Of a stretch of DNA of 64,000 nucleotides, positions 1 through 55,966 are shown one piece after another. The stretch's first letter is position 1. Each line of letters begins with the position of its first letter. Source of the stretch: Candidatus Omnitrophota bacterium (GTDB lineage: Bacteria; Omnitrophota; Gorgyraeia; 1-14-0-20-64-10); assembly GCA_023248155.1 (NCBI GenBank), contig JAHFFE010000008.1, forward strand, positions 6,515-70,514, read 5' to 3'. Both the position numbers and the translations under genes were made by a program. Under the pieces are notes generated by a model. The model was not told where the DNA came from. It worked only from the letters and a program-made list of their open reading frames with translations, and made no database searches.

Positions 1-3000
1 GCCAATCAAAACGGACAGGCTATACCGCTTTTTGCCGATCAATATGGTTTTGCGGTTGAAGGATCGGTCCGTCAGGTGGCCGTCCGGTTTGATGATCCGC
101 TCTCCGGCAAATCGCAAACCGAGAATGTTTATCTGCAATATAACCGCGATGCGAAGGGCGATTGGCAGATGGTTACCTACTGGGCCACGGACAAGGTTCG
201 TTGGGATGCCGGCCTGAAAGATAATGTGACCGGTCAGACCGTTGGCGGGTATCGCTATAACGAAACACCGCAAGAGCGCCAGCAGTTCGGAAAAACGCTG
301 GTTCGTGTTGATGGTCTGGTCCGGCGCGATGAAGCCGGCAACCTGAAAATTTTGGCGTTGGGCGGGCTCAATACCGAAAAACTGCCGGCGCTGTCTGTCT
401 TGACCAACAACGGTATGCGGCAATTTGAGGATGTTCGTGTCCGGTTCTATACCGATTCGACATTCCATGAAGTTTCGGCCGGGTCCAAGGTGGGTGGTGT
501 CGGTTATGAAGCGAAGGTCGATGGCAAATGGGTTCCTCTGCATCAGCTGGGTATTGTTCCCGAGGGAATTGATACCGACCGTTCCACGGTGCTGGCGCTG
601 GAATCAACCAAGATCTCTATTGCGGTAGACGCGCAAGGCAACTTCACGCTGGGTAAATCGACCGAGGGGCTTAAAGATCTTAACGGTAAGCCGTTGACCG
701 GTTCGTTAGTCGGCCACCATTCGGAAGGCAACTTTAACCTTTATGTTGGCAAGGGCGGCCAGGTCTTTTATCAGGGTGCCCGAGCAGCAGAAGGTTCTGT
801 CGGTTATCAGCGGGTGGTTCAGCCGTTCATCGCGCAGATTCAATCTCAGGGCAGTTATGGAACCGGTTACCCGGTGCAATATCTGCCGTCTGAAAATCTT
901 GAAGGCTATCGGGATCTGATTGCGCAAGGTTTGGGACTCACTACCGAGCAGATGACTGGACTCTACCCGCAAGGGAAAATTTCAGAAGCTTTCTCCAATC
1001 CGGTTATTTCGTTGGCCGACGCCAATATCCGCGTTACGGTCGATGGCGGCACTTATGGCCGCCAGTTGCCGGGCGAGGGTAACCATCTGGAAATGAACAC
1101 ACAGAATGGATCTTCATTCTTGTTAAGCGGCCAGTCGGGGTTGGATCTGGTTCTCGATCGAACAGAGCAAAGCGTGGGCGCCAACCGCTATACGATTTTG
1201 TCCGAATACAACGGAACAGAGGGTGCCACTGTTAAACTGGAAACGCCGTTGGTCATCCACGAATTTTCGGAGCAAATCCAGATTAACCCGAAGGCTGTCG
1301 CTGAGATTCGGAATTTATTTATTCGCGGCATGGAACGGTTCAAAGGTATGGCTGCCCCTGATTTTGTCAGCGCGATGAAGGACGAATTGCAGAATTCGGT
1401 CAGCCGCTTGACGGCCAGCGGCGTTACACAATCGGTTGAGCCGGTCTACCGCGTTGTTTCGCGGTTTGAACAGCCGGCGCAAGATCCATTGACCAGCCGC
1501 ATGGAATTAACACCGCTCAACGGCCGTATGGTTACGCCGGCCATCCAGGGTGATTCACTCAACCCGGCCTCGTCCATTTCCCTGATGGGAACCAATTACG
1601 CTGTTGGTTCCAAAATTGCGTTTGAAGGCCGGCCTGAGGGGCTGACATTGGCCACATTAGAGGAAGGCCGTGCCTGGAAATCGACCGTGGTTACTAATAC
1701 CGATTTCTTAAAGGCGGTTGGTCTTGAAAAGAACCAGGCGGTCGTAGTGATGCAGCACTATACCTCGGGTAATACGCGCGTGCCACAGGTATTGCGTTCT
1801 ATCAGCGTGGTCAATCCGTCTACCGGCAATAGCGAACTAATGAGCTATCGGTATGATCCAAAATCGGGCGCCGATGTTGGAAGCGGCCAGTTTAGCCTGC
1901 CATTGAACAGCACTCTGGAGTCGCTCCAGAAACAGTTCGGTTCTGTGGATGTTGATGGTTTCGATGCCGGTGCCGGGTTAGAAGTGGTTGGAATGACTGA
2001 TCTGCCGAAGATGACTGCCGTTGCTCTGCGCGAGCAAGGGCAAGAATTAACGCTCGGCATTCAGCGGCAAATGGCTCCGCAATCCGACCAGATGCTCCGG
2101 TTTACGGCTGGCATGGAAGCGGTTCTACCAGGATTGCTTGGCGAACTCGACCGGCAGGGTGTTTCTTTAGAGGCGTTCTTGGGTGCCACTGAGTACGGTC
2201 CAACCTATTCCGGCATGCTAAATCCTGTTTTAGCGGATGCGGCTGACGCTTCCTCCAACAGGGAATTGATCGGCATCGCGGTGCTGGCGCCGGAAGTTAC
2301 GCCGGTTGGCCGGCCGGTTCTGCAGCAAGCGCTGGTTCAACAGCTTTGGCTGGGCCGCAATGGTCAGATCGCTTATGACATCGTTAGCGGACGTGACACG
2401 GCGGTGGAATTGGTTCAATTCTTCGATCCGAAAACCGGCCAGCAGGGCATCGTCACGAACGATCGCACCGGCAACTCCATTTTCTTTGCCAAGGGAACCG
2501 AATGGATCATGCCGATGAAAGATACTCCTACCGTAGATATTGCATGGAAAGCCGAAGCGTTTAAGGTGGAAGGAATTTCTCTAGTGCTCGGCCAGCAAAC
2601 GGCCTGGTTGTTTGATACCAAGAATAACCGGTTTGCCCAGTTGGAAATTAATGGACAAAAAACACAGCCCGACAGTAATGGCTGGGCCCGCATTAATGAG
2701 GGCGATATCTATCAGCTCAGCCGCGACGACGATCCCCGCCGTTTGGAACGGCAGAAAGACGGATCGCTGGCTCCCACCATTGTCTCAACAAACACACTGC
2801 CACCTTCGATGCGCGCCGACACGCTTCCGGTGGCGGAAAAGATAACACCCGAACAACAGTTGGAGCAGTTGAAAGCTTCTGTGAAAAATGTCCGCGACCA
2901 GTTGGGTGAAGCGTTAGGTTCCGAGAGCGCTCCCGGAAAACTGCAAACCCAGACGCGCGAACAGGAAACCCGGCTTGCGCATCTGTATGGACAGACACAG

Positions 3001-6000
3001 GAGCCCGGTGTCCAGCAATCGCGCGACCAGAAACCGCCGGTTAAGCTGGAGGATAAACAGCTGGCTTTGTTGGTTGGTACGGCTGATGAATATGTGAAAC
3101 AGGTCGATGCTTTCCTGAAAGACGGCAAAGCGCTGTCGGAAGACAAAATGAAGGCGCTGTTGGCTTCCGGCAACACGCTGTTGGAGAAAACCAAAGAATA
3201 CCTTGGCAACAAAGATTTCCAGGAACAGTTCGCGGTACTGCAAAAAGCTTCAGGCCAGATGGACAAGCAGCTGACCAAACTCGAGCAGGACTGGAAAGAC
3301 GCCAAGATGTCTCCCGAGCAGAAACAATATCTGGGCGCTCAGCTGCGATTTATGACGGAACAGCAGGCCACGCAGGCGATCCTTTATAGCAAGGCCCAGC
3401 CGCTGGTTGCTTACCAGGAAATGTACCGCGCGGTTACCGAAATCCGGCAAGAACTGGGATTGCGGGGCGAAGGGTTTGCCACGCCGGTCGCCCTGCCCGA
3501 TTCGCTGGCAGAAATCGGTTCCCGGCTTGAAGTACAAGCGCGGGTTATGGATGGTCTGGAAGAACGCCTCCAGGGTTTGCCCATCGCCAAACAAACGGAG
3601 ATTCTGAACGGATTAACCGAACAAACCAAAGCGCTCAATGCCGATCTTGGCAAAGCGTTGGACGACAAAGGAATTCAGGAAAATCTGGGCAAACTGGCTT
3701 CTGATCTTGAAACGATCGTGCCAGATGTTCTTCTTCTTAAGGGCCGCGTCGACAGCTGGGTCAGTTTGGGCCGTCCGGCCAGCTTCACCGTGGACGGCGT
3801 TGATCTGCGTGTTGAGGCCGCGAGTATCGGCTCCAAGCTCGATTCATTGCGCCAGGCTTATCCGGTCACTCGACTGGGCGAACTGGTTGCCAATGTCCAA
3901 CGCAATGCCGGTGATCTTGCGGTCCAATGGAACGAAAAGAACACGCTGTTGGTTCCGATGCTGCAGCAGCAGGCCGCGCAAAGCGCATTCGAATCCAAAT
4001 ATAAGCAAGTAGCTGCTCCGTTGATGGCTATCTACGGCAAAGTCTACGAAGCGGTGGATCGCGTTTATGACAAACAGGCCGAAGGGTACATCCGACGAAT
4101 TGCCGAAAGCACGGCGATATTATTGGAAAAATCAGCAGGAATGGAAAGGGCAGAGGCCACTCTTCGATCGATTGATCAGGCGAAACTTGGAAGTGATCAG
4201 CCCGCTTTCCAGTCCAGTCAGGAAAAGAATCTTGCGCGAACCGCTGATGCGCTAAAACCGGAAATTGCCGTCCTGAAAAAAGAGATCCAGACTGAACAGG
4301 CCGCGTTGCACGCCATTCGAGTGGAACAGCATGCTGCGTGGGACAGAGATGCTCCTCAGCAGGTTCTTTATAAAATTGATGAGAATGGCGAAAAAGTCTA
4401 TTTACGAAAAGATATGGCTGCTACCAATGATGTTGCCAAGCGGACCAATGACACGGTTAATACGCGGGTTTTATACAGCATTCCGAATGAGAAGACGAAG
4501 TCCTGGTTAGAGCTGAATGCCGGCTCTTTAGCGGTCGGTTCCGCGGATGGGAAGATCGCTACGCGCTATGTTTTGCAGCCGGCCAAAATTGATCCGGCAA
4601 ACGAGAATACGGTCTTAGCTCCGGAACGGATGTTGCGCATGACCGATTACGATCCCTCTAAAGATCCACAGCAGCGTGTTCATGTTGAGGAATCGTTGGG
4701 TGAAATCCGGTACGACAGCAATAAAAACTCCAAAGAACTTCCATTTGTCGGAAGTTTCAAAGATCCGGAGAGAGCCGGTCGGAATATCCGGCTGCTTTCA
4801 GAAACGAAATTCCTGAATCCCAGAGAAGCTGTTCGGGTTGAGCGCTTCAGCGGAGAATCCATCTACGAGCAGGCGGCAATTCAGGGAATGGATAAAGAAT
4901 TACAGCAACAGTCGTTTATCGACATTAATAAAATTGACACGAACAAGAATAAATTCCTTGTCAACGCGCGCGCTACCTATATGCGCCTGGCGGAGAATGT
5001 TCCCGGATATGCTGATTTGCGGAACCGCGCCAATATCGCCCAGCAGGAAACCCGCCTCTATTCAAATATAACCGATAATCCTTACCGGGGTACGGTTTTG
5101 GCCAGTGACGCCTACGGCATTTCTCGCGAACGGATCACTCGTGCGGATGATTTTTACGAAGAAACTAAATTTGTTGGACCCGGCGCTACTGAATCGTATC
5201 GGATAGAAAAAGCAACCGGTTTGGCTGATGGAGCCACGCATGTTGCCAAGTATGTTTATACCTATTACGACGGAGAAAAAGCAGTCAGTAATTACATTCG
5301 CGGCTCAGAAACATTTATTAAGGCTCCGGACGGAATCCGTCGCGGAAGCGATGTCCATCCTGATCAGTATGTAACGCCGTTGAATCCGAAACCCGTTGAG
5401 TTGGCAATGATTAAAGCCGGCGACCCCAAGAAGGGGTACACGCTGGACCCGTATGGCACGAGCGCTATGAAAGATTTTGTCGCGGCGCCGGCCAACATTC
5501 CTTTTGGAGGCAGTGAAGGCCGTATCTTGGCGCAGGTCGCCGAGATGCCGCAGTTGAAATTCAAGAGCGAGGCCTCTTTGAAAGAGAATGGCGTAGAGAT
5601 CTATGAAGCGAGAACCAAAGTCGAAAAAGCCGAGCAATTAAAAGTCCGCGACACGGGATTCATGCAGATGGACAGCAGAGTTTATGGCGAATCGGGTGAT
5701 ACCACCGGCAATATCCAATTCGTGGTTCGGAAGGATGATTTCGGAAATCTTCATGTCGATACCAAGGAAAACTACGCGTTTGTAAAAGGCGTTTGGGTGA
5801 ATGCGCGTGTTTTGGCTGTGGGACCGGTGGCGACTTCTATCTGGAACGAAAAACGGTATAACCCCAACCATGTCCAGATTGAAGGCGGAGAGCGATTTAG
5901 CCCTGACCAGCTGAATGCGTCTTATTCACGAATTGAGATTAATAAGGCTGGAGACGCGGAAGAGCGCGTTTATTACGGCAGAACACTGCTCAATTCCGAA

Positions 6001-15000: not shown

Positions 15001-18000
15001 AAGGCCGATGCCACCGGCGTTCTGCGATTGACCGAGAAAGGCCAGAGTTCTTTGACTGAACTGGATCGGGCAACGGCAACGGTTCCAATCGTGTCATCTC
15101 TCTCAGAAGCCAGAACCGTCAGCCAGGCAATCCGGTTCGTTCAGTCTGAAGTGGGCCGCGAAGAACTTCCACTGCTGGCGGGCCGTTCCGCACCCGACTC
15201 GGTTCGTACGCTGACATTGCGCGATAATTTGAACGGTCTTCTGGAAAGCGTCGGATTAACGGAAGGCGAGCGAACCAATTTCCTCAACAGTCCGGAACTG
15301 CAGCGGCTTCAGGACGGGCAGGGCCGCTTCATCGGCGAGTCCGGTCGTAATTTTGTCGAGACCTCAGAACAACTGGTTGCCGCTGTGCGGAATGATTCCG
15401 ACCGTGGAGCGCTTTCGACGGCGCTGACATCGCTGGGCCATTCCGATTGGGCCGCGATCGTGACAAATGGAACGCAGCCGGGTAACGGCCTCGCGCTGGC
15501 ACAGACGGCGCTCGGTTTGTCGTCCAGCCCGCTGACCGATCCGCAATCCGGCGGCGTTAAATTCCTAGTTAGCGTCGGGTATCAGCTGCAGTTAGAACAG
15601 ACCCCGGCATCGGTTCAGTTATCGCCGAGCGATTGGGCCCGTTTGCAGACTTCCTCGAATATGGGGCTTGAGCTGAACTCGCTTCTTGGTACCCGTACGA
15701 CGGTTGATCCGGCGCTGATGGCGCGCGCGCAGTCAGGTCAGGAAACCATCCAGCAGGTGCTGCCGATCCGCCAGCAGCTGCATCAGATAGAAAAAGAACT
15801 CGATTCCATTCAGGACAGCCGTATTGAAGAAGCCGTGAAAACTGGCCGCGATAACCCGGTCTCGGTGAAGCGGGGTGATAAGAATGATCCATTGCCGGCC
15901 AACCTGGTTTTGAAGGAAGCGGAATTGACGCGCCGCCGCGATCAGACTCAGACACAGTTGACCAAGGCCGAGAAACCGCTGGACAAAGGTCTTCTAACGG
16001 TGGCCGATCTGGTGACTACGCATGCCGGCGGAGATGTGGACAGAGCCGCATCACTGGCCGTTCGGTTTAACCCGGCGTTGCAGTCGTACTCGCATAGCCA
16101 GTTAACGCAGGCGCTGCGCCGCTTGACCCAGCCGGTCAGGGATAATGGTTTCGGTCTGCAAGGGCGGAGCATCTCGGTCTATGATCTCGACAACTACCTG
16201 CGCGACTCGCGTGAATTCCTGAAAACCGCTGCGCCTTCGCGCGGCCTGTTGTCTGAAGCTTTGACCGAGTTGGATAAAGCGATTGATTTGGAAAAAATAG
16301 AGGGAACCCGGACCAAGGATAAGTCGAAGTCGGAAGTCACCCTGCCGATTATTGAAGCGGCGGCCGCCGCGACGGTTGCCCGTTTATCGGCCGGCCGAGT
16401 TGAAAAAATGGCCGGAGAAAATGAAGACGTGCCCCTCTTGGATGGCGTTCCTCTGACCAACGAAAGGGTTACCCGCTTGTTAATGACCGCGGTTAATCCG
16501 ACTGCTTCCGACAATGATTTATCGGCGGCGGTGACGATCGGCTCTGTGGCAACCGATTTGTCTGAACAGCAAGTCGGCAGTTATCAGACTGATCCGTCCT
16601 TATTAAGAGCGCGCCAGCGCGCCGCACTCGAATCGGCCGCCCGGCGTGTTGCCTACCGCGATGTTTCGAACAAGGCCGAACAGCTGGTGGCCCGTTTTGA
16701 AGCACAGGATAAGTCGTTAACGCCGGCTGACCTGAAAATTATTTATACCGCCTTCGAAGCCCTTGAGAATAAAAAAGACAGGGGTGCCCTTGTGCAGATT
16801 GTCCGCGCGCAATTATCGCAAAACGAGCTTTCTGCCGGGCAGATAATCCAGCAGCATCCGGCGGAAGTTGTATCAGAATACCGCAGCGCGCTGTTGCGCG
16901 ATCCGCTCAGCCTGCTTCCGTCCATCAGCCTGGTTGCTTCGGTCGCGTCCCAGGAAAAGATCAACAATAATTCGTATGCGTCTCTGGCTGCCGGCCGGCG
17001 AACCTTGATCGATCGCCTCGATTCAGTCAACCGGTTGTTTAACCCGGACCTGCAGGAGTCTGCGGCGACCGGGTTGGTAGAGGAGCGGCTGGGTATCGTT
17101 TCTCTGACGGCCGCTTCCAATGTCTCGATCGAACAGTCGTTGCTGCACTTAAATCGCATGGTGGCCAACGGCCGGCAGGAATTCTCCGATCCGGCCGGAA
17201 TCTTTGTCCGGCTCAACCTGAAACTGACCCAGGCTTCTTCCTTGCGGATCGACGAGGCTCGTTCGGCCGCGGCGCGTGTGACGCATCTGTTAGAAAAAGG
17301 ATTGCGGCGTGAAGATTTGGTTCCGCAGATTACGGCTCAGGCCGTTGATCAGTTGCGCGCGAAGGTCGGTCTGCCGCCATTGAACCTAAACCAGGTCCAG
17401 CGCGTGGTCTATGACCGCTACCTGCCGTTTGTGGAACGGGAATTGGGCGGCGTTGCCAATCCGGCGGCCAGCCAGAAACAACTCTCTTCCTATGCGGTCA
17501 ATGAGCTCAAATCAATTTTGACCGATATGGGCAATCCGGTCGCGTCGAACATCGCCCAGCAAATTTCCGATATCACGATTTTGCAGCTGGTTCAGTTAAG
17601 CCATAACTTAAACCAGCAGGTCTTTATCCCGAACAACACGGCGATCGCGATCCATCCGGAAGGGATCACGGCCGGCGCGTTGTCCGATGTGAAAGACCGG
17701 AATATTAACGGCATCACCGTTTTTGATGTCTTGGTCGATCAACCGTTTGAAAATGTGATGGGCAGCACGCCGGGTGCCATGCATTTTGAAAATGTCGGCG
17801 TCGCTATGCCGGAAAAAGGATTCCGCGTTCTGGATGTCGTTTCGATGCTGCGCGCTGGCCAGGTGAATATTCAGGCGCAGAAGATTGCCCGCTTGCTTCG
17901 CGAGAGCGGAGATTCGGCCAGCCTTCAGGTCGCTAATCTGGTTATCAGCTGGGCGCAACAGATTGAAGCTCAGGTTGACCGCTCCCGCATTACGATTGAC

Positions 18001-21000
18001 GGCACCGCGCGGTCTTTGCAGAAAAATCAGCGGATTGAGGAAAGCTGGCACGCTTCCGACCGCGCTTCCGTCGGCCAGCTAGGTGATGTGGCCAGCCAGG
18101 GTTCTCAGGCCATTCCGGCTACTGTCGCGGCGATACTGCGTGAAGACGGCCGGCTAATTCAAGTGGTGGCTGGTTCCGCTGATCCGGCAGCGATGGCCGC
18201 GGCGCGCAGCCAGTTAACCGGAGATGATAATGGTTCCGTCTTCGAGTTGTCGGCGAAACTGGAACGGTTGCGCGCTTCCAGTGACATTAATGAGTTGGCG
18301 ATCGAATTTACCAACACCTTGATTCAGTGGGAAAACGACAGCGGTTTGTATGTGAAGGCGTTCGGCTGGGTTCTGCGGATGATGGACAGCAAGGGTGTTA
18401 CTCTGTCCGGTGCTACCGCTGATGAAGCGATGGCCGGGTTCCGCCGCGGCATGGCCGATATTCAGAACGATACCTTCTACCGCTATGATGAGCGGCTGGA
18501 GCGGCTCGATGGCGACCAGCAGCTGAAGATGCGCTTTATTGGACGGGATACCGCGCAGCAGAGATTCTTTGTTCAAGCATCGGCTGAAAATCGTGCCGCT
18601 TATGTTGCCACACAGCAGGCGCTGGCTCGTTCGGTCGACAGTTATTTAACCCGGGCCGGACTGGAAGAAGGTGGCGGTGAAGAACCGAAGCCGGAAGAAA
18701 TCGCCGCTGCCAAAGCCAAGGAAATCGATACCGCATGGAAACAGCTGACAGCAATTTCCAAAGATGTTCAGGCGCCGATCGTTATCTCAGCGAATATTCG
18801 TCAGGCTAACGGCATCGTGATGCCGGCTGAAGCGGTACTCATTGAGCAGGCAATGGCTCGCCGCGTGGATGCGGCTGTTCAGCGTTTAATCGAACGGATC
18901 AACGGTGCTGCCGTTATCCGCCGCATGAATGTTCAGGAAGCGGCGATGGATGCCGTTGAACGGCAGGTACCGGTCTTCCTGATGAATAACGGGCGGCCTG
19001 AGCGCGTGATGGGTATGGATCGCAGCGGTCTGCTCGTCACGATGGGCGTTGGAAAAGACCAGACGCTTCAGCAAATAACCGCCGATCCTGCTCTGCAGGA
19101 AGCCGATTTCCTGGTCGGTGTTTTCCAGCCGATTGCGTTGGGTGAGCCGGTGACGCTCAAGCGAGGCGGTGTCGATGAACAGGTCCGGTTCGAATTTGTT
19201 TCTAACGGCGCCACAGCTTCTTCTTGGGAAATGCTGGACAAAGACGGTATTACTGATGTCATCCGTTCGCTGGCAAGAGAACCCGGATCATTTGAACGGT
19301 TTGAAGCCAGTTGGAAAACCCAGCATGAGACACCTGGCACAATCCACGCGGTGGCCCGTGACTCTAAGGGCCGCATTGTCGCCTCCATCGTCACTTATCC
19401 CGACTCTGCGGAAGTACATCCGGGTGATTACGCGGCTGCTCAGCAGGCCGGAGCTTCTTATTTAGTCAGCCAGCCGGCTCTTTACATCAAATATTGGGCT
19501 GCTGCCGATGGTGATAAAAAAGTCAGCGGTGCCGGCGATGCGCTCAGAGCCGCGCTGTTAAAAGCTTTGAAGGAAGGGAAGGTTTCTTCAAAGGATCGCA
19601 AGCCGTATCAATTGGTTACCTTCCACGCCAGAGCCGAACAATTCGGACAAGAAGGAACAGCGGCTCCGTCTGTCTTCGATATTTTGTGGAAAGAAAAGCT
19701 TCAGTTATCTGCTGACTCATATGATCTGATTACTCAGAAGGGATATTACCAGGGGTCTCATGGCGAAAGCGTGGATGCTCACTACGCGATTATCAAAACA
19801 GATAAAATTTTCTCAGAACAAACACCGGTTCCGCCGATTCAGAAGAGCGGCGCCGAAGAAGCGGTTATTGAAGAATCGGTAATTAATGAATTCGCCGATG
19901 GCCTGTTAGGCCGCCAGCTGGACGCGGTCATCACCAGCCAGATTGATCAGTTAACGGCCGGTTCAGGACAGGAATTAAGAAAACTGCCGGAAATCCGCCG
20001 GTTATCGGTGACCGATGCTGATATGAACTCGGTGATGGAAGCGCTGAAAGATCCTCGCACGATCGAAGACTTAAACTGCGCCTGTGCGTCGGCGGTCAAC
20101 TACGCGCGCGCGATGGGCCAGCAAGTGACCGCGCCGGATATGGGCAATATTGTCCACCGGTTCGTCGGACTGATGGTCCGGCAGGCGCTGACCGACAACG
20201 GCAGTTCACTGACGCTCTATGAGCGGTTGGGCATGGGCGAGCGTCCGTCGATCCCGGTTCCATTTGAACTGATCCAGACGGTATTGGCCACGCCTGGCCT
20301 GATTGCCGCCGCGCCGCGCGGATTTGTAACGACGCTTTACCAGACCTCCGCGGTTCCGGCAGGGAAAACCGTGACGGTGATGGAACGGACCGAATCGGTT
20401 CCGGTTCCGTCGGCGATTTACAGCCGTTACGCCAGGGAAGGTTTTGTACTGGGGAATCGCAACGGTCCGTTTGTTGCTTATCTGGAAGGGCGCAACATTG
20501 GCGGGCATGCCGCGGTAGTTTCTGCGATGCCGGATGCCGTTACAATCAGCCCGGTGGCGCCGGTTAGCGTGCGCGGATTTATGGTTCGCGGTCCGGCCAT
20601 GTTTGCGATCAAAGACGGCGTTTTGTACGCTGACAGCAAACAGGTAACCGGTCTCGATCAGGCGTTGGCCACGGTTCAAACCAGCCGTTGGCAGAAGGTC
20701 GCGATGGCAGGAATTGGTGGGGCTCCCGGTACGGTCAAGGCTGTTGATGAGATGGCCACCGCGGTCATCGAAGCGGCGAATTCGAATACGAATTCGTCAT
20801 CGCCGGTTGAAGGGCTTCCGCCCGATAATAGAGTACTCTCGGGCAGTCTTAGCAAGGCGAAGAAGCGGCTTGCTCGGCAGGCTGTTGCAAAGAGTAGGTT
20901 TGAAACCTGGCTCAGCAAACTGGCCCGGATTGCCACGCTGGGTGAAGAGCTGGCAAAGTTCCAGGAAGGATTGAATGAATTAAACAAATTGGATGATGGG

Positions 21001-22710
21001 GAATTACCCGATCCAGAACTCCGGTATGACGGTCCTGAAGCGGTTCAAGACTATCTGGAGTCGTCTCTGAGATTGGGACGTTTGGCCGCGATGAGAGCTT
21101 ATGCCGAAGAGGCCAAAGTCAAAGATTTTGAAGCCTGGCTGGCACAGCAGCCGTCCATTGCCGATGCCGCGATTGATTACGCGCGGGAGGCTGCTAAGCG
21201 GGATATTTCAACCGATCGTCCTGTGGCCTGGACTCCCAACGCGCCGCTGCCAGTGGTAGTCGAACAGCCAGTACAGCCGGTGGTTACCCCGGCTGAGAAA
21301 GAAGTTTCCGATCCGAGCTGGCTGGTCAAAGAACTCAGCACGAATGGCGTGGGGGTTCTGACCGCTTCCGGAAAAGTGACGCCCGCCAGCGTTGAGCGGT
21401 TTATGGATCTTTCGCGTACGGTGATGGAAGAACGGTATGGCTGGCAGAACTCGCTCGAAAAAGAAGGTGCCCGTTATTGGTTAGATGAGAAGGGCGATGC
21501 GTTCCTGACCCGGCCTGACGGTAGTTCCTCTGTGGCGTGGGACTGCTTCGATGGCGCGGTGGCGATCGCCAAAGTGCTTGAGTCCGTGGGCTTGCAGCCG
21601 GAACTGCGCGTTGGCCAGACCAACGGCTTCACGCGCGACGTGTTCGTAGAAGTTGAGATTGACGGCCAGACGCTGCGCTTAAGCGCCGTTCCGTCGATGA
21701 AGGCCGTTGAGGTGGTTTCCAATGCGGCCGCGTCGCAGTGGCGCAATATCCAGCCGGTTCCATGGACGGTCGCCAATCAGATGGCGGCGGCGCGCGTTTC
21801 AGTAGTCGGTATGTCGCACATGCGCCCGATGGCGATTCAGGAGCAGAACGGCTCCTATCAACTAATTCTCGGCGGCGTGACGCGCAATAGTGCTGGAAAT
21901 TTGGATATTACCGTCGCTACGCAAAAAATCGGTCCAGATGGAACGGTTACTCCAGTGTCGTTGCACCGCGCCCGGAACATTTCAATCCGCGCGATGCAGG
22001 TTCAGGGCAATGGTTCTGAGTTGTCGGAAGCGCTCAAGAACGCTGGTACGCAGGACCTGCGCGGTGAACTGGAACAGGCGTTGAAGGGAACCGGCGCGAA
22101 CCTCTCGACGCAGGGGAATTCGGAAGGATTGAAAACGCTGGCCGACATGCTGCGTATTCCGGTTGCTCAGAAGCGGCCGGTCCGTTTGCCGGCCTCCGGC
22201 GAAACCGTTCCGCAGGATGCGATGGTTGCCGCGCTGCCGGGTTTTGTCCGCTGGCAGCAGTTTGCCCAGCAGATCCAGAATAACGATGTCGTGGTTCTTC
22301 CGGCGCAGCTGCTTGACCAGGTTGATTCGGCCACGCTCGACGCGCTCTCGGCGCTGCCGCCGGAACTCAAGTCGCGCGTGGTTTTGCTGGGGTCAGGGTG
22401 GCAGCAGCGGTTGGGTAATAAGACCGGCTTCCAATATGCGGCTGGTGCTGAAGAATTGGCAGCGCTGTTCGCCGGCCGGCCCGGCATCCGCGTTCAGGTG
22501 TTCGGCCTGAACCCGGTGGAAGATTCGTTCAAGGCGATCCGCGGCGCGCTCAGCGGCAAGGGAATCACGCTGGTTGTGGTCCGGTTGACCGGCTCTCTCG
22601 AGCAGTTCCTGCTGATGCTGGGCCGGGCACTGTTAACGCCGGAAGCGGTCACGCATACCGAAGCCCAGCGCCTTGCGCAGGAAGTCCGCTCGTTGGGCCG
22701 TCAGGCATAG
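1..22710 (+). CDS. Giant protein, 5'-partial (at least 7,569 aa inside the window, N-terminus lies upstream). Mostly alpha-helical/coiled-coil, with an embedded P-loop NTPase core and a C-terminal ~130 aa domain shared with the next five genes.
   Basis: The reading frame is open from base 1 to a TAG stop at 22708-22710, with no stop in 22.7 kb. Codon usage is uniform and the region is GC-rich. The track ORF 76..22710 begins at a GTG only because the window starts inside the gene. A Walker A motif (LSTGGGKSS, ~12651-12675) and a Walker B DEFD motif (13027-13038) sit within a helicase/SecA-like motif order. Long Ala/Leu/Glu/Gln-rich heptad-like stretches occur at ~2800-4400 and ~8800-10500. The C-terminal ~130 aa align with the C-termini of the following genes. 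Confidence 0.85.
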   Translation, partial: ANQNGQAIPLFADQYGFAVEGSVRQVAVRFDDPLSGKSQTENVYLQYNRDAKGDWQMVTYWATDKVRWDAGLKDNVTGQTVGGYRYNETPQERQQFGKTLVRVDGLVRRDEAGNLKILALGGLNTEKLPALSVLTNNGMRQFEDVRVRFYTDSTFHEVSAGSKVGGVGYEAKVDGKWVPLHQLGIVPEGIDTDRSTVLALESTKISIAVDAQGNFTLGKSTEGLKDLNGKPLTGSLVGHHSEGNFNLYVGKGGQVFYQGARAAEGSVGYQRVVQPFIAQIQSQGSYGTGYPVQYLPSENLEGYRDLIAQGLGLTTEQMTGLYPQGKISEAFSNPVISLADANIRVTVDGGTYGRQLPGEGNHLEMNTQNGSSFLLSGQSGLDLVLDRTEQSVGANRYTILSEYNGTEGATVKLETPLVIHEFSEQIQINPKAVAEIRNLFIRGMERFKGMAAPDFVSAMKDELQNSVSRLTASGVTQSVEPVYRVVSRFEQPAQDPLTSRMELTPLNGRMVTPAIQGDSLNPASSISLMGTNYAVGSKIAFEGRPEGLTLATLEEGRAWKSTVVTNTDFLKAVGLEKNQAVVVMQHYTSGNTRVPQVLRSISVVNPSTGNSELMSYRYDPKSGADVGSGQFSLPLNSTLESLQKQFGSVDVDGFDAGAGLEVVGMTDLPKMTAVALREQGQELTLGIQRQMAPQSDQMLRFTAGMEAVLPGLLGELDRQGVSLEAFLGATEYGPTYSGMLNPVLADAADASSNRELIGIAVLAPEVTPVGRPVLQQALVQQLWLGRNGQIAYDIVSGRDTAVELVQFFDPKTGQQGIVTNDRTGNSIFFAKGTEWIMPMKDTPTVDIAWKAEAFKVEGISLVLGQQTAWLFDTKNNRFAQLEINGQKTQPDSNGWARINEGDIYQLSRDDDPRRLERQKDGSLAPTIVSTNTLPPSMRADTLPVAEKITPEQQLEQLKASVKNVRDQLGEALGSESAPGKLQTQTREQETRLAHLYGQTQEPGVQQSRDQKPPVKLEDKQLALLVGTADEYVKQVDAFLKDGKALSEDKMKALLASGNTLLEKTKEYLGNKDFQEQFAVLQKASGQMDKQLTKLEQDWKDAKMSPEQKQYLGAQLRFMTEQQATQAILYSKAQPLVAYQEMYRAVTEIRQELGLRGEGFATPVALPDSLAEIGSRLEVQARVMDGLEERLQGLPIAKQTEILNGLTEQTKALNADLGKALDDKGIQENLGKLASDLETIVPDVLLLKGRVDSWVSLGRPASFTVDGVDLRVEAASIGSKLDSLRQAYPVTRLGELVANVQRNAGDLAVQWNEKNTLLVPMLQQQAAQSAFESKYKQVAAPLMAIYGKVYEAVDRVYDKQAEGYIRRIAESTAILLEKSAGMERAEATLRSIDQAKLGSDQPAFQSSQEKNLARTADALKPEIAVLKKEIQTEQAALHAIRVEQHAAWDRDAPQQVLYKIDENGEKVYLRKDMAATNDVAKRTNDTVNTRVLYSIPNEKTKSWLELNAGSLAVGSADGKIATRYVLQPAKIDPANENTVLAPERMLRMTDYDPSKDPQQRVHVEESLGEIRYDSNKNSKELPFVGSFKDPERAGRNIRLLSETKFLNPREAVRVERFSGESIYEQAAIQGMDKELQQQSFIDINKIDTNKNKFLVNARATYMRLAENVPGYADLRNRANIAQQETRLYSNITDNPYRGTVLASDAYGISRERITRADDFYEETKFVGPGATESYRIEKATGLADGATHVAKYVYTYYDGEKAVSNYIRGSETFIKAPDGIRRGSDVHPDQYVTPLNPKPVELAMIKAGDPKKGYTLDPYGTSAMKDFVAAPANIPFGGSEGRILAQVAEMPQLKFKSEASLKENGVEIYEARTKVEKAEQLKVRDTGFMQMDSRVYGESGDTTGNIQFVVRKDDFGNLHVDTKENYAFVKGVWVNARVLAVGPVATSIWNEKRYNPNHVQIEGGERFSPDQLNASYSRIEINKAGDAEERVYYGRTLLNSEEQKLNYPDKPDEQVIAGIYNKLDGSFTGNTRMIVPYFSDPKGFVPFQMLYGAFHVDQLGRWAAGPDGKVDTFMGNMTPNQFAWTTAVFREALIFEVGGLAMKGPTLGGGIGRGYQTVVGWSAGAASRRAIVGLGEQAFVQGGKALSEAGILVGRSAAAQVYTRAYSNAAARLLFKPVGQTVATLADDLAVATVSRISAQVSVHGAGYLSANIIGRTGMQIATPFLTRPAMSWQAFREGAGQFFSSGKNGWVSPENIKTLLIRTPLDIQFRMNPAFSLASNLGLLISDRMGTPMVNQYGLPTSNGFFSTHFAADRHGSENLFTAESWKNAVMLTPIMFASQPISRALGGLIGFNQLAQLKSAAHSSVIAQYSVLYMDMKVLLPAAEGVIVSGLETVGIPSKVEVFGFSFSPSGLIAQVVSFGIIAPQITPNAGKAASAEVLRTESADAAAGASRALTDIAGREARNQQAVPPATETLAGTGAVQETVARQVDMAEQTQTSQQTRTVAETETPELIRLSDTAREQVPDAEGTLNRLLVLPVTSGSSATGAELADVTGSLRAYSGEARAGAGDSTFRGALRQGVEHAMGMLQSWLTGRSEPGKAPTATEQLDLLTAVDNLAQAVEATGLGRKLGDKLGDLAGQAAGFKTPELNALAPSAAAPASIRALNLGQSLPQNLQNAGVASSRVAVVAGKLGEVVARVPDQIRRISGSSPETAAVITVAITRSVASLARFVPEGDVRSRLVQAPRAAAAEMAKITPRQETTPPTVKVAAAPETTPAQPQTASTSDAIQIRSVENGKAEEIRIKLDSDRSNVSSATDLSGRLTLTVDTKGNLTISAEGELPAELRNSRVTLTQDGKPVNSNGRELNGKVTLGSLLDKPIQVNTDKDSVKIRINSGKEGTFEETAQKAADKTAETARPRETEPSARPKESSFRDQVRAVFNEAGRDSDQQSFVTQQDVVHSTFDGVRSEFNQLIEQAAKAATPEARQALLEKAVQRLDQMITVAEEALGAIGRKGLNAAETGKLVNQLFEDVSKGYDLLADTALAAAEARGGNASGLVASMGQSFSRMADFAGSAARLLQQAGAKPSELITLIGKTAERLMGADGKSGSFGKLLAIYDAVVKDAKATAAQRTEAVVGISTAEASLGRYVERSLQTAKNAGIKVNAEALGNMFYESTNEYTSRIEQLDVNKFGELTANQAGQLFGNELAAMESARDAFAAVRSSGGKVNLGRDGKLFGRMATAVSRQITAVFAQTKAGSEQFFAAVEASSRLMEDTRSLEQARLLEKGAAGDLIRSQMKTLSTALDKLAGGSNEIVAAGQEAETLFVWFEALVGSDVWSGLDANQRAVILGFSIEAQASSQLAGVRSEEQHARAGAIFPQQATRGAGAFRSRLQNEVRNLFSDPNLSADSKLELANRVDRTEKATRFDRATLRAKNQARAQAADVFADQARDNAGTAAGTAAAVKWAIARRTPAADRLLESTGATRSDKSRGSPEDLASRAAQANTPESRRAVSEIWASLKQELRQRSDFTSERELDLDSRLSGRAPETPRESPQELIARTAPALNKAAQAKLQKAPVEPVEVVRIDKAGRNALPGLKELPSGKDRDTIIENRIQSMSDQKRLETLTKQTEIGTKDGTPVLALQVVEGDRGFLISLDSRLSTGGTVRQRVATELVRRAEVQILSKSQLETVFRQMHADNASGKTIELPGGKSLPNIAAVREVIDQVVEGPVRRVVEGDGLQALFKSGSEIDTLSKKIGEQLDQKLPVVEATIVLNDRPTDVVMTNELAREIVKKLSEIRKPFYAKEAESAVTTVLETVVIPEGATPQQRTAAIVSALTGKIIEPMKAAKPDATNGQDIVVTITADGTAHKAPRADFVKAMAGTIGAEVAERLAYEGKLDQLTSDQTKELVGKLSDTVRSVEAETLDGLRKGLFNDEQIILNDAADNAIRGAIVPVLASRAEQLAREELGQTDRINFHKPAEGKDSLTALKNTETRLLNETGTARGSREHAVILIDSLPRLFEQSQRNGLALSGKALSEDLSKEITASADFHGQLARDARTQLVNSSENHTAFGSNEQVSSQIDRGWNNISIDRTSLKQGQVDHLTSIVRLEAAGLVRDALEPFAVSGATQDQFNKAGLTPAFIERLGYDSDGLKLESGKTAYAPETVQTVRGKVDSEARVRVRAEQVRDLKGFPSIRPEQWAAIRNIAMGDKYSVEALSTGGGKSSFVSPVLAAFIYDTTGEKVVVVFSDAGLMKAGYNDAARVWGVGKYSDKPGLTTNGKSDGPKFDVYLHETGHIPERLDPELESANIIYTTLEGLKSASLAEKLGTSPNAFEPFRQANYLIDEFDTLKLDPDLQGTLPGSGITLAQFGHVQTQVETVVRYIRATYGESAVENFREGKGGNGLSNSIEQSLTYTETELSPELRIVANRGDIHEMSAIGLERTANGNYRYTPRHDQVHFSPEFKEGLVEYLREKSVSLELKFNQDTQFSDFVDSPEGQQWMAAADEVARAVTAIHGRDFATDATLADGTISSRSPTRLVPVHEASGGTQTRQHWSNPYQAAAYNEVLSGEFLKSSPLPAGEIQLDPTSTRVSTNDVLADIRAGHIAARGENGTGPQLRIHGYSGTGIQGGGGRLLGRLFGVTVPDVEARAENLGSLAADQFTVLRGPDAMQQALSQSARVTIDVTTVLDSKINETLWRSENQSSAHVIRDGEGNFWYFEKGSNQPRSIDYADARLLALNDNVRFFIHRAGSRGLDLPIPEGAGIRVLVSDSTGLDALEQALGRWRGEYNHQLWGADNYKPGIGQVQKNQVDLVMIDSRETGPNTISKGELENMAVQNQNRAVDPTALGQQIQTTFSTRAQWQLGKMLTIVQASPGSEAWAAPLRQKLNDLMEHNAAAANHQQTGTALQSGEHQLVEAVRNGLRGEVSAMAEVRSLEASGEYGPLPAEAKAILEETLSNRVADFETEGHLLTRNELGQIAAGKGSELTADTQAVLIRGGYAEKADATGVLRLTEKGQSSLTELDRATATVPIVSSLSEARTVSQAIRFVQSEVGREELPLLAGRSAPDSVRTLTLRDNLNGLLESVGLTEGERTNFLNSPELQRLQDGQGRFIGESGRNFVETSEQLVAAVRNDSDRGALSTALTSLGHSDWAAIVTNGTQPGNGLALAQTALGLSSSPLTDPQSGGVKFLVSVGYQLQLEQTPASVQLSPSDWARLQTSSNMGLELNSLLGTRTTVDPALMARAQSGQETIQQVLPIRQQLHQIEKELDSIQDSRIEEAVKTGRDNPVSVKRGDKNDPLPANLVLKEAELTRRRDQTQTQLTKAEKPLDKGLLTVADLVTTHAGGDVDRAASLAVRFNPALQSYSHSQLTQALRRLTQPVRDNGFGLQGRSISVYDLDNYLRDSREFLKTAAPSRGLLSEALTELDKAIDLEKIEGTRTKDKSKSEVTLPIIEAAAAATVARLSAGRVEKMAGENEDVPLLDGVPLTNERVTRLLMTAVNPTASDNDLSAAVTIGSVATDLSEQQVGSYQTDPSLLRARQRAALESAARRVAYRDVSNKAEQLVARFEAQDKSLTPADLKIIYTAFEALENKKDRGALVQIVRAQLSQNELSAGQIIQQHPAEVVSEYRSALLRDPLSLLPSISLVASVASQEKINNNSYASLAAGRRTLIDRLDSVNRLFNPDLQESAATGLVEERLGIVSLTAASNVSIEQSLLHLNRMVANGRQEFSDPAGIFVRLNLKLTQASSLRIDEARSAAARVTHLLEKGLRREDLVPQITAQAVDQLRAKVGLPPLNLNQVQRVVYDRYLPFVERELGGVANPAASQKQLSSYAVNELKSILTDMGNPVASNIAQQISDITILQLVQLSHNLNQQVFIPNNTAIAIHPEGITAGALSDVKDRNINGITVFDVLVDQPFENVMGSTPGAMHFENVGVAMPEKGFRVLDVVSMLRAGQVNIQAQKIARLLRESGDSASLQVANLVISWAQQIEAQVDRSRITIDGTARSLQKNQRIEESWHASDRASVGQLGDVASQGSQAIPATVAAILREDGRLIQVVAGSADPAAMAAARSQLTGDDNGSVFELSAKLERLRASSDINELAIEFTNTLIQWENDSGLYVKAFGWVLRMMDSKGVTLSGATADEAMAGFRRGMADIQNDTFYRYDERLERLDGDQQLKMRFIGRDTAQQRFFVQASAENRAAYVATQQALARSVDSYLTRAGLEEGGGEEPKPEEIAAAKAKEIDTAWKQLTAISKDVQAPIVISANIRQANGIVMPAEAVLIEQAMARRVDAAVQRLIERINGAAVIRRMNVQEAAMDAVERQVPVFLMNNGRPERVMGMDRSGLLVTMGVGKDQTLQQITADPALQEADFLVGVFQPIALGEPVTLKRGGVDEQVRFEFVSNGATASSWEMLDKDGITDVIRSLAREPGSFERFEASWKTQHETPGTIHAVARDSKGRIVASIVTYPDSAEVHPGDYAAAQQAGASYLVSQPALYIKYWAAADGDKKVSGAGDALRAALLKALKEGKVSSKDRKPYQLVTFHARAEQFGQEGTAAPSVFDILWKEKLQLSADSYDLITQKGYYQGSHGESVDAHYAIIKTDKIFSEQTPVPPIQKSGAEEAVIEESVINEFADGLLGRQLDAVITSQIDQLTAGSGQELRKLPEIRRLSVTDADMNSVMEALKDPRTIEDLNCACASAVNYARAMGQQVTAPDMGNIVHRFVGLMVRQALTDNGSSLTLYERLGMGERPSIPVPFELIQTVLATPGLIAAAPRGFVTTLYQTSAVPAGKTVTVMERTESVPVPSAIYSRYAREGFVLGNRNGPFVAYLEGRNIGGHAAVVSAMPDAVTISPVAPVSVRGFMVRGPAMFAIKDGVLYADSKQVTGLDQALATVQTSRWQKVAMAGIGGAPGTVKAVDEMATAVIEAANSNTNSSSPVEGLPPDNRVLSGSLSKAKKRLARQAVAKSRFETWLSKLARIATLGEELAKFQEGLNELNKLDDGELPDPELRYDGPEAVQDYLESSLRLGRLAAMRAYAEEAKVKDFEAWLAQQPSIADAAIDYAREAAKRDISTDRPVAWTPNAPLPVVVEQPVQPVVTPAEKEVSDPSWLVKELSTNGVGVLTASGKVTPASVERFMDLSRTVMEERYGWQNSLEKEGARYWLDEKGDAFLTRPDGSSSVAWDCFDGAVAIAKVLESVGLQPELRVGQTNGFTRDVFVEVEIDGQTLRLSAVPSMKAVEVVSNAAASQWRNIQPVPWTVANQMAAARVSVVGMSHMRPMAIQEQNGSYQLILGGVTRNSAGNLDITVATQKIGPDGTVTPVSLHRARNISIRAMQVQGNGSELSEALKNAGTQDLRGELEQALKGTGANLSTQGNSEGLKTLADMLRIPVAQKRPVRLPASGETVPQDAMVAALPGFVRWQQFAQQIQNNDVVVLPAQLLDQVDSATLDALSALPPELKSRVVLLGSGWQQRLGNKTGFQYAAGAEELAALFAGRPGIRVQVFGLNPVEDSFKAIRGALSGKGITLVVVRLTGSLEQFLLMLGRALLTPEAVTHTEAQRLAQEVRSLGRQA

Positions 22711-22791
22711 TCAGAAATAGCATAGAAGATTTTTACACAAAAACCGGTTCACGCATGGCATACTTAAAGTAGGTCAAGGGTAAAAACACCT

Positions 22792-22832
22792 TTCGCGGGG
22801 TCGCACCAGCTCTCCCCGCGGAAGTTTTTATT
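22792..22832 (+). terminator. Rho-independent terminator between the two giant genes.
   Basis: A 9-bp GC-rich stem (TTCGCGGGG...CCCCGCGGAA) with a 13-nt loop is followed by GTTTTTATT. It lies 82 nt after the stop of giant gene 1. Confidence 0.6.
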
Positions 22833-22898
22833 ACCCCTCTTTTTCAAGAGATAAGAACTTTTCGATAAAGCGGTTTAGTTGACCCAAAAGGGGGATTC

Positions 22899-39932: not shown

Positions 39933-40085
39933 AGTCAGATAATTTTTTAATGATATTTTTGAGGCAAAAGCCATCGGTCTATGGCATACTTACACTAGAG
40001 CGATTGAATAAAAAGTTTCGTGGCGGAAGAACGGGTTTCGCCGCGAGATTTTTATTTAGCTCCCTTTTTTCAAAGATCAAAATAG

Positions 40086-44315: not shown

Positions 44316-44325
44316 ACGCGCTAAA

Positions 44326-54122: not shown

Positions 54123-55315
54123 ACAAGCAGTCATTGCGCAATGACATGTTCTTCGTTCTCGTTTTATGCTTAATGCTGTGCGCCACCCCTGTTTTTGCCG
54201 CCGAGGTCTCCGTTAGAGACGTCCCGGCATTCCCGGAGGGTACCGCCATTCTTCCGATTGAACAACCGCGCATGCAGCGCGGCCGGTTTGGCGCCTATGC
54301 GATGAGTCCCTCAAAAATGGGTATTTTCCCGGACTTCAAAATAGCAAAACGGCCGGGGTCGTCGGTGGAACCGATGTATGTCCGCTTTCGCAAAGAACCG
54401 GGGCCCTCTTTTTGCGGTTCTTACTGGATTATTGCCGGCGATTTGCGCAAATACGCCACGCTGACCTTCTGGATCCGCGGCGAGCGCGGCGGCGAGAATT
54501 TTGAAATCGGCCTCAATGACTTAATCGCCAGCCGCCGCGAAGATGCGATCATGGGAGGCTCCATTTACCGGTATCTTCCGGGCGGCATCACCAAAGAATG
54601 GCAGCAGGTGAAAATTCCGCTCGAAGATTTTTTCGGCGCCGATTTTTCCCGCATACACAGCCTTGTTTTTTCGTTCTCTGATCCGGGGGAGGGAGCGCTC
54701 TGGATCGACGGCTTTGTTTTCCATGAAGAAGCGCTGGTCCAGCGGGAGGACGAAATCATCCGATCGGGCGAACTGCTGCTGGACAACTTCGACCACAGTG
54801 ATTTGAACCTGCTGGGCCGCAAAACCAACGCTTACAAAAAAACACCGTCGTTTTGCGCGGCCAGCCGTGTTGAGAAACCGCGCCGTGGAAACCAGGGCCG
54901 CTCGTTGCGCCTCGATTATGATAAGCAGTCGACCGGGTGGGCCGGTTATTTTTCGCTGTTTAACCAGATTGACGGCGCTTATTACGATTTAAGCCAATTT
55001 AAGGAGATCCGTTTCTGGGTCCGCGGCGCGCGCGGTAAGGAGGTTTTTGATGTCGGCATGGCCGACCGTTCCTGGTTGACTATTGGTGATTCGGTCAAAT
55101 GTGGTACAATAGATAAATACTTAAAAAAAGGCGTCACAAAAGATTGGCAGGAAGTAGTAATTCCGTTTAAAGATTTTGGCAAATTAGATTGGTCACAAAT
55201 GGGTTCTTTTGTGGTAAATTTCTCTAGGCCGGCAAAAGGAACCCTTTTTGTGGATGATGTCCGGGTGATTCGGAAATCGGACGAAGAACTGCTGAAGGAG
55301 TGGGATAAACAATGA
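54119..55315 (+). CDS. Secreted protein with two tandem beta-sandwich (CBM-like) modules (398 aa).
   Basis: There is an ATGA overlap with the upstream stop. The signal peptide is MNKQSLRNDMFFVLVLCLMLCATPVFAAEV. There are two copies of the FW(I/V)RG..G.E.F.IG(L/M).D ... YL..G.TK.WQ.V.IP motif (CGSYWIIAG...FWIRGERGGENFEIGLND and WAGYFSLFN...FWVRGARGKEVFDVGMAD). Confidence 0.75.
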   Translation: MNKQSLRNDMFFVLVLCLMLCATPVFAAEVSVRDVPAFPEGTAILPIEQPRMQRGRFGAYAMSPSKMGIFPDFKIAKRPGSSVEPMYVRFRKEPGPSFCGSYWIIAGDLRKYATLTFWIRGERGGENFEIGLNDLIASRREDAIMGGSIYRYLPGGITKEWQQVKIPLEDFFGADFSRIHSLVFSFSDPGEGALWIDGFVFHEEALVQREDEIIRSGELLLDNFDHSDLNLLGRKTNAYKKTPSFCAASRVEKPRRGNQGRSLRLDYDKQSTGWAGYFSLFNQIDGAYYDLSQFKEIRFWVRGARGKEVFDVGMADRSWLTIGDSVKCGTIDKYLKKGVTKDWQEVVIPFKDFGKLDWSQMGSFVVNFSRPAKGTLFVDDVRVIRKSDEELLKEWDKQ

Positions 55316-55923: not shown

Positions 55924-55966
55924 GGGTTATGGCATATTTAGAGTGGGTCAAGAGGAGGGAACTAAA

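Follow-up and report, generated by a model that had tools for sequence, protein, structure and literature searches.

A 5′-truncated giant gene of an Omnitrophota bacterium with a putative SecA-like motor and a giant membrane-protein neighbor

What kind of protein can fill more than 22 kb of uninterrupted reading frame in a bacterium, and is such a frame a gene at all? Both questions are raised by G1, the open reading frame (ORF) at the 5′ edge of a 64,000-nt stretch of DNA (the window) from Candidatus Omnitrophota bacterium (GenBank assembly GCA_023248155.1, contig JAHFFE010000008.1, positions 6,515 to 70,514 of the forward strand). Few products of bacterial genomes are as poorly understood as giant nonrepetitive proteins, and the G1 locus provides a compact and unusually clean example. 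We find that G1 is a real protein-coding gene, the product of which very probably belongs to the class of giant proteins equipped with a SecA-like motor. In this protein of >0.8 MDa, the apparently SecA-derived motor is the only recognizable element, and a conserved partner gene, G2, encodes a giant membrane protein.

G1 occupies positions 1 to 22710 of the plus strand as a 5′-truncated ORF of 7,569 codons plus a TAG stop (22708 to 22710); codons and amino acids are numbered here from window base 1. Frame 1 is free of stops over bases 1 to 22707. The earliest codon of the window that could serve as a start, a GTG at position 76, bears no mark of a genuine one. On the opposite strand, the longest open stretch in the whole window reaches 350 codons, which excludes chance as the source of so long a frame. 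Evidence of coding is even from one end of the frame to the other. GC contents at the first, second, and third codon positions (∼0.62, ∼0.44, and ∼0.60, respectively) are steady across all 1.5-kb blocks, and the codon usage of each 4.5-kb segment correlates at 0.76 to 0.83 with that of ordinary genes at the opposite end of the window; in the two wrong frames, the correlation never exceeds 0.29. The original prediction, made from this DNA alone, of a giant gene cut by the window edge is therefore borne out. The 3′ end is equally clear: the G1 TAG is followed by five further in-frame stops ahead of the next gene, and TAA, TAG, and TGA alike serve as stops in the window, indicating the standard code and a genuine end of G1. 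Homologous ORFs on other contigs terminate at the same relative point and are followed by a G2 homologue.

A second assembly covers the 3′ part of the gene. The 41,151-bp contig k141_4085768 (ENA ERZ27280021) is 99.997% identical to window positions 14532 to 45396 (30.9 kb) and spans the final 2,725 codons (8.2 kb) of G1, its stop codon, and the next genes. The first 14.5 kb of G1 are represented in one assembly only, and its 5′ end lies beyond the window; the source contig (77,498 bp) leaves room for at most ∼13.5 kb more, i.e., for a G1 protein of no more than ∼12,000 amino acids on this contig. Tandem Repeats Finder reported just four trivial two-copy arrays in G1, and self-BLASTP revealed no internal protein repeats at E < 1e-4, so that a repeat-driven misassembly is unlikely. 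The concern over misassembly expressed in the original prediction is thus met by the lack of repeats and by the agreement of the two assemblies over 14532 to 22710, but it persists for the single-assembly portion. An artifact, be it a chimeric contig or a noncoding or decayed region that stays open by chance, could draw on this single coverage, on the end of the second assembly inside the ORF at position 14532, and on the ∼60% of the G1 protein that lacks any relative. We nevertheless regard it as extremely unlikely, given the length of the stop-free frame compared with the opposite strand, an in-frame coding signal that is even over all segments, the shortage of repeats from which chimeras could arise, the near identity of the second assembly, and the existence of relatives collinear with amino acids 3592 to 6169 and 7118 to 7510. 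The break of k141_4085768 within G1 does not coincide with a repeat, and in a sister metagenome-assembled genome (MAG; GCA_964607585.1) the region of O15-O16, two ORFs of the window, is confined to a 4.8-kb contig. Such poor short-read assembly of the locus in MAGs implies that relatives are probably undercounted in databases.

Standard annotation reveals next to nothing about the protein. The whole visible sequence found no match in Pfam, PHROGs, NCBIfam, PADLOC, or PDB sequences other than two weak ones, to apolipoprotein E (E = 0.01; amino acids 2485 to 2592) and to RoaM (E = 0.02), both of which were dismissed as compositional similarities of amphipathic helices. With neither a Pfam match nor internal or tandem repeats, the predicted lack of Ig-, cadherin-, or RTX-type repeats holds. 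A Kyte-Doolittle scan detected no convincing transmembrane (TM) helix in the visible 7,569 amino acids (the maximum was 1.6, with charged residues present). The amino acid composition is not extreme (Ala, 11.5%; Leu, 9.5%; Gly, 8.1%; Pro, 4.2%). The same prediction had described the protein as predominantly alpha-helical or coiled-coil. This description finds no support in a Gly-plus-Pro content of 8 to 18% in all 200-residue windows, heptad-like helical periodicity that is elevated solely around amino acids 2600 to 3400, or the mixed alpha/beta secondary structure of two low-confidence AlphaFold2 models of G1 regions; the profiling of helices and heptads from composition is a crude test and serves here only as an argument against a predominantly coiled-coil protein.

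Relatives of G1 are remarkably few. In a word-indexed search of 5.8 billion clusters, amino acids 1 to 1500 and 1501 to 4500 yielded no match, and amino acids 4501 to 7569 yielded a single one, P0013, a partial hypothetical protein of 3,404 amino acids from the MAG of Candidatus Omnitrophica bacterium CG11, which aligns with G1 residues 4130 to 5813 at 28.7% identity (E = 1.7e-128). An exhaustive search of 1.84 billion representatives with a HMMER profile of the family returned just seven matches. A scan of GTDB genomes retrieved the same Omnitrophica contig that encodes P0013 and nothing for the N terminus of G1. Scanning of JGI/ENA metagenome contigs added three loci in which a giant ORF is likewise cut by its contig: L005 (at least 6,002 amino acids; 69% GC), L006 (at least 4,939 amino acids; 58% GC), and L007 (at least 4,026 amino acids; 40% GC). 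No relative was found among 2.9 million viral contigs.

The region common to all these relatives is an ATPase motor of superfamily 2 (SF2), located at amino acids ∼4084 to 4950 of G1 (12250 to 14850, plus strand). It contains the full SF2 motif set, which is kept in relatives at 25 to 37% identity, and thus substantiates the internal NTPase of the original prediction. Walker A (motif I) reads LSTGGGKS, with TGGGKS at amino acids 4218 to 4223 (12652 to 12669, plus strand), and is conserved in the relatives. Motif II is DEFD (amino acids 4343 to 4346; 13027 to 13038, plus strand), replaced by DEVD or DEAD in other members. An insert of ∼275 residues (13039 to 13860, plus strand) separates it from a motif III-like YSGTG (amino acids 4621 to 4625; 13861 to 13875, plus strand; compare GMTGT in SecA); the insert takes the position of the preprotein cross-linking domain of SecA, and toward its end carries WSNPYQA (amino acids 4553 to 4559), comparable to WSDGLHQA at residue 349 of SecA. 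The second RecA-like domain follows, with motif V SRGLD at amino acid 4750 and motif VI GRWRG at amino acids 4781 to 4785 (14248 to 14355, plus strand). This Walker A does not conform to the classical GxxxxGK[ST] pattern, and three loose matches to that regular expression, at amino acids 213, 3695, and 4273, were discarded as not being P-loops.

Motif order, insert, and profile comparisons indicate that, among SF2 ATPases, SecA is nearest to the G1 motor. The landmarks of G1 follow one another as in SecA, namely Walker A, motif II, long insert, WS-x3-QA, and motifs III, V, and VI, and the distance between motifs II and III is 278 amino acids in G1 and 180 in SecA, versus 31 in the DEAD-box helicase RhlE. 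When an eight-member profile of the motor was compared by hhalign with seven Escherichia coli SF2 ATPases serving as controls, the best of the seven was nucleotide-binding domain 1 (NBD1) of SecA (score, 54.9; E = 6e-6; 130 columns from Walker A to motif II; probability, 85%); the others scored 39 (RecQ), 30 (UvrB), 27 (RhlE), 23 (HsdR), 17 (RapA), and 16 (DinG) over 44 to 64 columns. Searches of PDB sequences with the family profile placed the DEAD-box helicase Spb4 at the top (E = 0.026, confined to the P-loop region) and Thermus thermophilus SecA next (E = 0.05), the latter alignment running from Walker A through DEVD and superimposing GYSGTG on GMTGTA. Among five family members, Pfam DEAD was matched by four and SecA_DEAD by two. 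P0015 surpassed the gathering scores of both families (SecA_DEAD, 25.5 bits versus a threshold of 24.6).

The same motor could instead belong to a nucleic acid-dependent SF2 helicase or translocase, in which case G1 would be a giant multidomain "conflict" protein akin to the polyvalent proteins of mobile elements or to defense helicases. Relatives do match Pfam DEAD and ResIII no worse than SecA_DEAD, the 31-residue spacing between motifs V and VI is DEAD-box-like and unlike that of E. coli SecA, RecQ ranked second among the hhalign controls, and a methyltransferase domain occurs in one relative and a weak GNAT domain in another. On the other side stand the 130 columns aligned with SecA against 44 to 64 with the remaining controls, the 278-residue separation of motifs II and III, which places an insert with a WSxxxQA motif at the SecA position, and a neighborhood of membrane and secreted proteins. 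Further counterevidence comes from the PADLOC and PHROG searches, neither of which gave a match, from the viral contigs, which held no relative, and from the window itself, in which no integrase, tRNA, or other mobile-element hallmark was seen. We therefore rate the helicase alternative as unlikely. Viral, defense-system, and mobile-element readings as such were rejected on the basis of these PHROG, PADLOC, viral-contig, and mobile-element negatives.

Several observations weigh against the assignment that we prefer, i.e., a SecA-like motor in a protein residing on the cytoplasmic side. G1 alone remains below every Pfam threshold (DEAD, E = 0.11); its SecA_DEAD assignment is transitive, since only its relative P0015 passes. 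The Pfam DEAD and ResIII matches of the relatives equal the SecA_DEAD ones in quality, and canonical SecA does not appear among the family-profile matches in the 1.84 billion representatives. Pfam finds no SecA_PP_bind domain in G1; hhalign does align the insert collinearly with the preprotein domain of SecA, yet not significantly (E = 0.29), so that this likeness consists of position and one short motif only. No equivalent of the SecA scaffold or wing was found, in that SecA_SW gave no match and hhalign covered NBD1 only. The AlphaFold2 model of the motor is poor (predicted local distance difference test [pLDDT] score, 53), and fold searches with it were not discriminating. Cysteine depletion, which G1 displays, is commoner in exported than in cytoplasmic proteins. 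Finally, the visible G1 protein lacks TM helices, which sets it apart from the giants described in Omnitrophota, and the TM-rich protein is the product of a separate gene, G2.

Mapping with phmmer against the relatives delimited the modules of G1. The conserved core, shared by ∼8 proteins, comprises amino acids 3592 to 6169 and 7118 to 7510 (∼3,000 residues). Upstream, the N-terminal part (amino acids 1 to 3591; 1 to 10773, plus strand) is an orphan with no relative, no domain in Pfam, PHROG, NCBIfam, or PDB, and no TM helix. It is followed by a premotor module (amino acids 3592 to 4130; 10774 to 12390, plus strand) common to L005 only; G1 residues 3592 to 4933 align with L005 residues 2633 to 3942 (E = 6e-128). 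Beyond the motor lies a module without known domains (amino acids 5006 to 6169; 15016 to 18507, plus strand) common to L005, L006, and P0013, and then an essentially orphan segment (amino acids 6170 to 7117). The C-terminal module (amino acids 7118 to 7510; 21352 to 22530, plus strand) has a counterpart in L006 (E = 6e-23) and a weak one in L005; its profile matches no family in PDB or Pfam, and its single-sequence AlphaFold2 model is unusable (pLDDT, 42). The two relatives whose N-terminal regions are visible, P0016 and L007, have a cluster of N-terminal TM helices ∼1,300 to 1,450 amino acids upstream of the motor. Two domains found in relatives are absent from G1: a class I methyltransferase near the C terminus of the L005 ORF (L005 positions 16000 to 18008; Methyltransf_25, E = 3e-6) and a weak match to a GNAT acetyltransferase in L007 (positions ∼10000 to 10320). 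Both are reminiscent of the published domain content of "Archaeovorin-type" proteins. The second RecA-like domain (G1 amino acids 4677 to 4828) has stand-alone relatives with a degenerate motif V (e.g., NRGLLDL), one at the C terminus (amino acids 773 to 917) of P0017, a repeat-rich protein of 934 amino acids that looks WD40-like by eye, and one at amino acids 31 to 178 of the 195-residue P0019. These stand-alone copies suggest that, besides its place in the motor, the domain spreads as a module of its own.

The cysteine content of G1 is conspicuous. Position-specific base composition predicts ∼100 Cys residues, of which the protein has three, all at conserved positions. Two form a CxC motif (amino acids 6693 to 6695; 20077 to 20085, plus strand) within LNCACAS, which reads LNCVCAS in L006. 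The third, Cys7182 in the C-terminal module (21544 to 21546, plus strand), is invariant and embedded in an equally invariant DC pair (WDCFDGA, SDCFTSA, and FDCASGA); its equivalent in L005 is the sole cysteine in 6,002 amino acids. Cys7182 is a candidate for a catalytic or processing role, and the pattern as a whole singles out three residues for mutagenesis. The products of the large downstream genes, G2 to G6, are similarly poor in cysteine (0 to 0.4%, compared with 0.4 to 1.3% in most ordinary neighbors).

Size and cysteine scarcity together recall surface proteins, and the original prediction implied an adhesin or toxin. In that event, G1 would be exported unfolded by a dedicated system, and its ATPase-like region would be degenerate or repurposed. 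Besides its length, three Cys residues out of ∼100 expected are typical of proteins exported unfolded, the N-terminal region is beta-rich and abundant in Gly, Tyr, and Val, and secreted proteins with carbohydrate-binding modules (CBMs) are encoded nearby. Yet G1 has neither repeats nor any RTX, Ig, cadherin, or other adhesin domain, and no type I secretion system (T1SS) genes occur in the 41 kb downstream. Moreover, all catalytic motifs of the ATPase are intact and conserved in relatives at 25 to 37% identity, which argues for an active, ATP-using, and hence cytoplasmic motor. An ATP-dependent motor in a protein that has no TM segment or repeat in its visible 7,569 amino acids is at odds with the implied adhesin or toxin, which we consider improbable.

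G2, the gene next to G1 (22899 to 35396, plus strand), encodes a polytopic membrane protein of 4,165 amino acids with ∼10 strong TM helices between residues 1693 and 2923 and no known domain. In both L005 and L006, a G1 homologue is followed at ∼110 to 180 bp by a G2 homologue; the pairing is therefore retained in lineages whose GC contents differ widely. Taking all the evidence together, our favored explanation, which we hold to be probable rather than secure, is that G1 encodes a real, nonrepetitive giant protein of the SecA-like motor class that resides on the cytoplasmic side and acts on polypeptides. The 7,569 visible amino acids most likely face the cytoplasm, since the motor requires ATP and is not cut off from the remaining visible sequence by any TM helix. 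Tethering to the membrane would be provided by G2, by a cluster of N-terminal TM helices encoded beyond the window edge and resembling those of P0016 and L007, or by both. At the expense of ATP, the motor would thread or remodel polypeptide, be it segments of the giant proteins or the signal-anchored G3 to G6 products and CBM proteins, and the outcome could be the building of a cell-envelope apparatus. A role in protein translocation, exerted by G1 together with G2, is a possibility that we put forward tentatively. Still more speculative, and in our opinion unlikely, is the extension of this idea to a self-contained, Sec-independent giant machine for translocation or assembly. In this scheme, G1 would be a cytoplasmic motor-scaffold of >0.8 MDa, powered by its SecA-derived ATPase and docked on G2, and the G3 to G6 products and the CBM proteins would be exported by the pair or assembled to form a surface organelle. 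The invariant cysteine would act as a catalytic nucleophile, for example, in autoprocessing or covalent attachment. If this were true, G1 and G2 would represent a distinct subclass, absent from the literature on giant genes and recognizable by the conserved gene pair, the cysteine pattern, and a motor protein without TM helices.

G2 is the first of five further large ORFs (G2 to G6) that lie directly downstream of G1 on the same strand, at positions 22899 to 51615; none of their products matched Pfam or PDB. G3, G4, and G6 (1,458, 1,409, and 1,732 amino acids) are paralogues with 23 to 49% identity. G6 and G5 (716 amino acids) have a C-terminal stretch of 142 amino acids in common (68% identity; ∼77% at the DNA level over 313 nt), and G2 and G3 share one of ∼120 amino acids. 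The start of G5 is ambiguous within positions 44251 to 44326: the longest ORF, which opens with a TTG at 44251, overlaps the last 65 nt of G4, but in the gene annotation of the ENA contig the start lies ∼75 nt downstream of this TTG and the product has 691 amino acids. N-terminal signal or anchor segments are present in all the products of G2 to G6 and also in those of the ORFs O7 to O14. Downstream of G6 come genes for four secreted CBM30/CBM9/CBM11 proteins, a TPR-PDZ protein, a HAMP protein, a 6-phosphogluconolactonase, and a DUF4954 protein, which indicate a chromosomal setting. ORFs O7 to O11 (51669 to 57606, plus strand) constitute a tandem, mutually paralogous secreted family with CBM30, CBM9, and CBM11 domains and a signal peptide each. 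No tRNA, rRNA, or Rfam family was detected in the window, nor was an integrase or other mobile-element hallmark.

The intergenic regions of this cluster contain a recurrent element. The motif ATGGCATACTTA occurs three times in the window, versus 0.06 copies expected by chance: at position 22755 (after G1), at 39981 (after G3), and at 55929 to 55940 (just before O10). In the first two cases (22755 to 22836 and 39981 to 40062), it is followed by a strong GC-rich hairpin (z = −5.4 and −3.4, respectively). The one downstream of G1 (22778 to 22836, plus strand; fold z = −5.4) is terminator-like, with an A-tract and a U-run, and after both hairpins, which are flanked by these tracts, comes the sequence CCCT(C)TTTTTCAA(G)AGAT. 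These ATGGCATACTTA-hairpin units resemble intrinsic terminators or a shared regulatory leader. The motif is not sigma-70-like, and, judged by eye, it bears no likeness to a clean sigma-54 promoter either.

How, then, does G1 compare with systems already described? Size and very low cysteine content are what it has in common with giant repeat adhesins and RTX toxins of the LapA/MpIBP and MARTX types, from which it differs by an intact ATPase and by the lack of tandem or internal repeats, of RTX, Ig, or cadherin domains, and of a nearby T1SS. Its likeness to DEAD-box RNA helicases such as RhlE and Spb4 includes a Q-motif-like segment, Walker A, and DExD, the Pfam DEAD matches in four of five members, Spb4 as the top PDB sequence match, the motif V sequence SRGLD, and the spacing of motifs V and VI. 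Unlike these helicases, G1 has 278 rather than ∼31 residues between motifs II and III and a motif III of the form YSGTG, not SAT; the hhalign comparison was limited to the P-loop region (46 columns; probability, 3%). With canonical SecA, G1 shares the motifs of both nucleotide-binding domains in the same order (Walker A, DE[VF]D, xxGTG as motif III, RGxD as motif V, and a GRxGR-like motif VI) and a large insert between motifs II and III that ends in WSxxxQA. It departs from canonical SecA in scoring below the Pfam SecA_DEAD threshold, in lacking matches to SecA_PP_bind and SecA_SW, in the shorter spacing of motifs V and VI, and in the location of the motor at least ∼4,200 amino acids from the N terminus of a giant protein, in which helical scaffold, wing, and C-terminal linker are undetectable.

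The closest counterparts are the giant proteins of Omnitrophota themselves. In most of them, SecA_DEAD and preprotein-binding domains are present in divergent, rapidly evolving form, the scaffold and wing domains are missing, and TM helices are numerous; their SecA-like domain has been proposed to export the giant protein itself (West-Roberts et al. 2023, bioRxiv 10.1101/2023.11.21.568195). Among the Omnitrophota proteins of at least 10,000 amino acids, 15% are Pfam-dark and 80% of the sequence clusters are singletons, and SecA_DEAD is the sole domain in one architecture cluster, which comprises 20 proteins (bioRxiv 10.64898/2026.06.07.730766). The cutoffs for "giant" in the two studies are >30,000 amino acids (bioRxiv 10.1101/2023.11.21.568195) and ≥10,000 amino acids (bioRxiv 10.64898/2026.06.07.730766). 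Besides the absence of TM helices weighed above, G1 differs from these proteins in its visible length of 7,569 amino acids (at most ∼12,000 on the contig), which compares with published cutoffs of 30,000 and 10,000, in having no detectable Pfam domain, and in its surroundings, as the 41 kb downstream showed no pilZ, solute-binding, or type II secretion system-like (T2SS-like) neighbors. Neither paper mentions the G1-G2 pairing or a depletion of cysteine to three conserved residues (the word "cysteine" occurs 0 times in both).

The similarities nonetheless extend over several levels. Like the "Archaeovorin-type" and related giants, G1 is a very long single ORF with a largely unannotatable sequence and an internal, fast-evolving SecA-like DEAD motor that has an insert at the position of the preprotein domain and no scaffold or wing. 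Its relatives occasionally bear a methyltransferase or GNAT domain, its homologue P0013 comes from an Omnitrophica MAG, and carbohydrate-binding proteins are encoded nearby. Standard annotation with Pfam, NCBIfam, PHROGs, and PADLOC misses the G1 motor completely. Should the motor indeed move polypeptide, G1 and G2 would offer a tractable model for the insertion, export, and assembly of giant proteins, the value of which would stem from their being much smaller than proteins of 30,000 to 85,000 amino acids. On the sequence features assembled here, G1 is best filed not as a new class but within the described class of giant proteins with SecA-like motors, of which it appears to be a clean and fairly tractable example.

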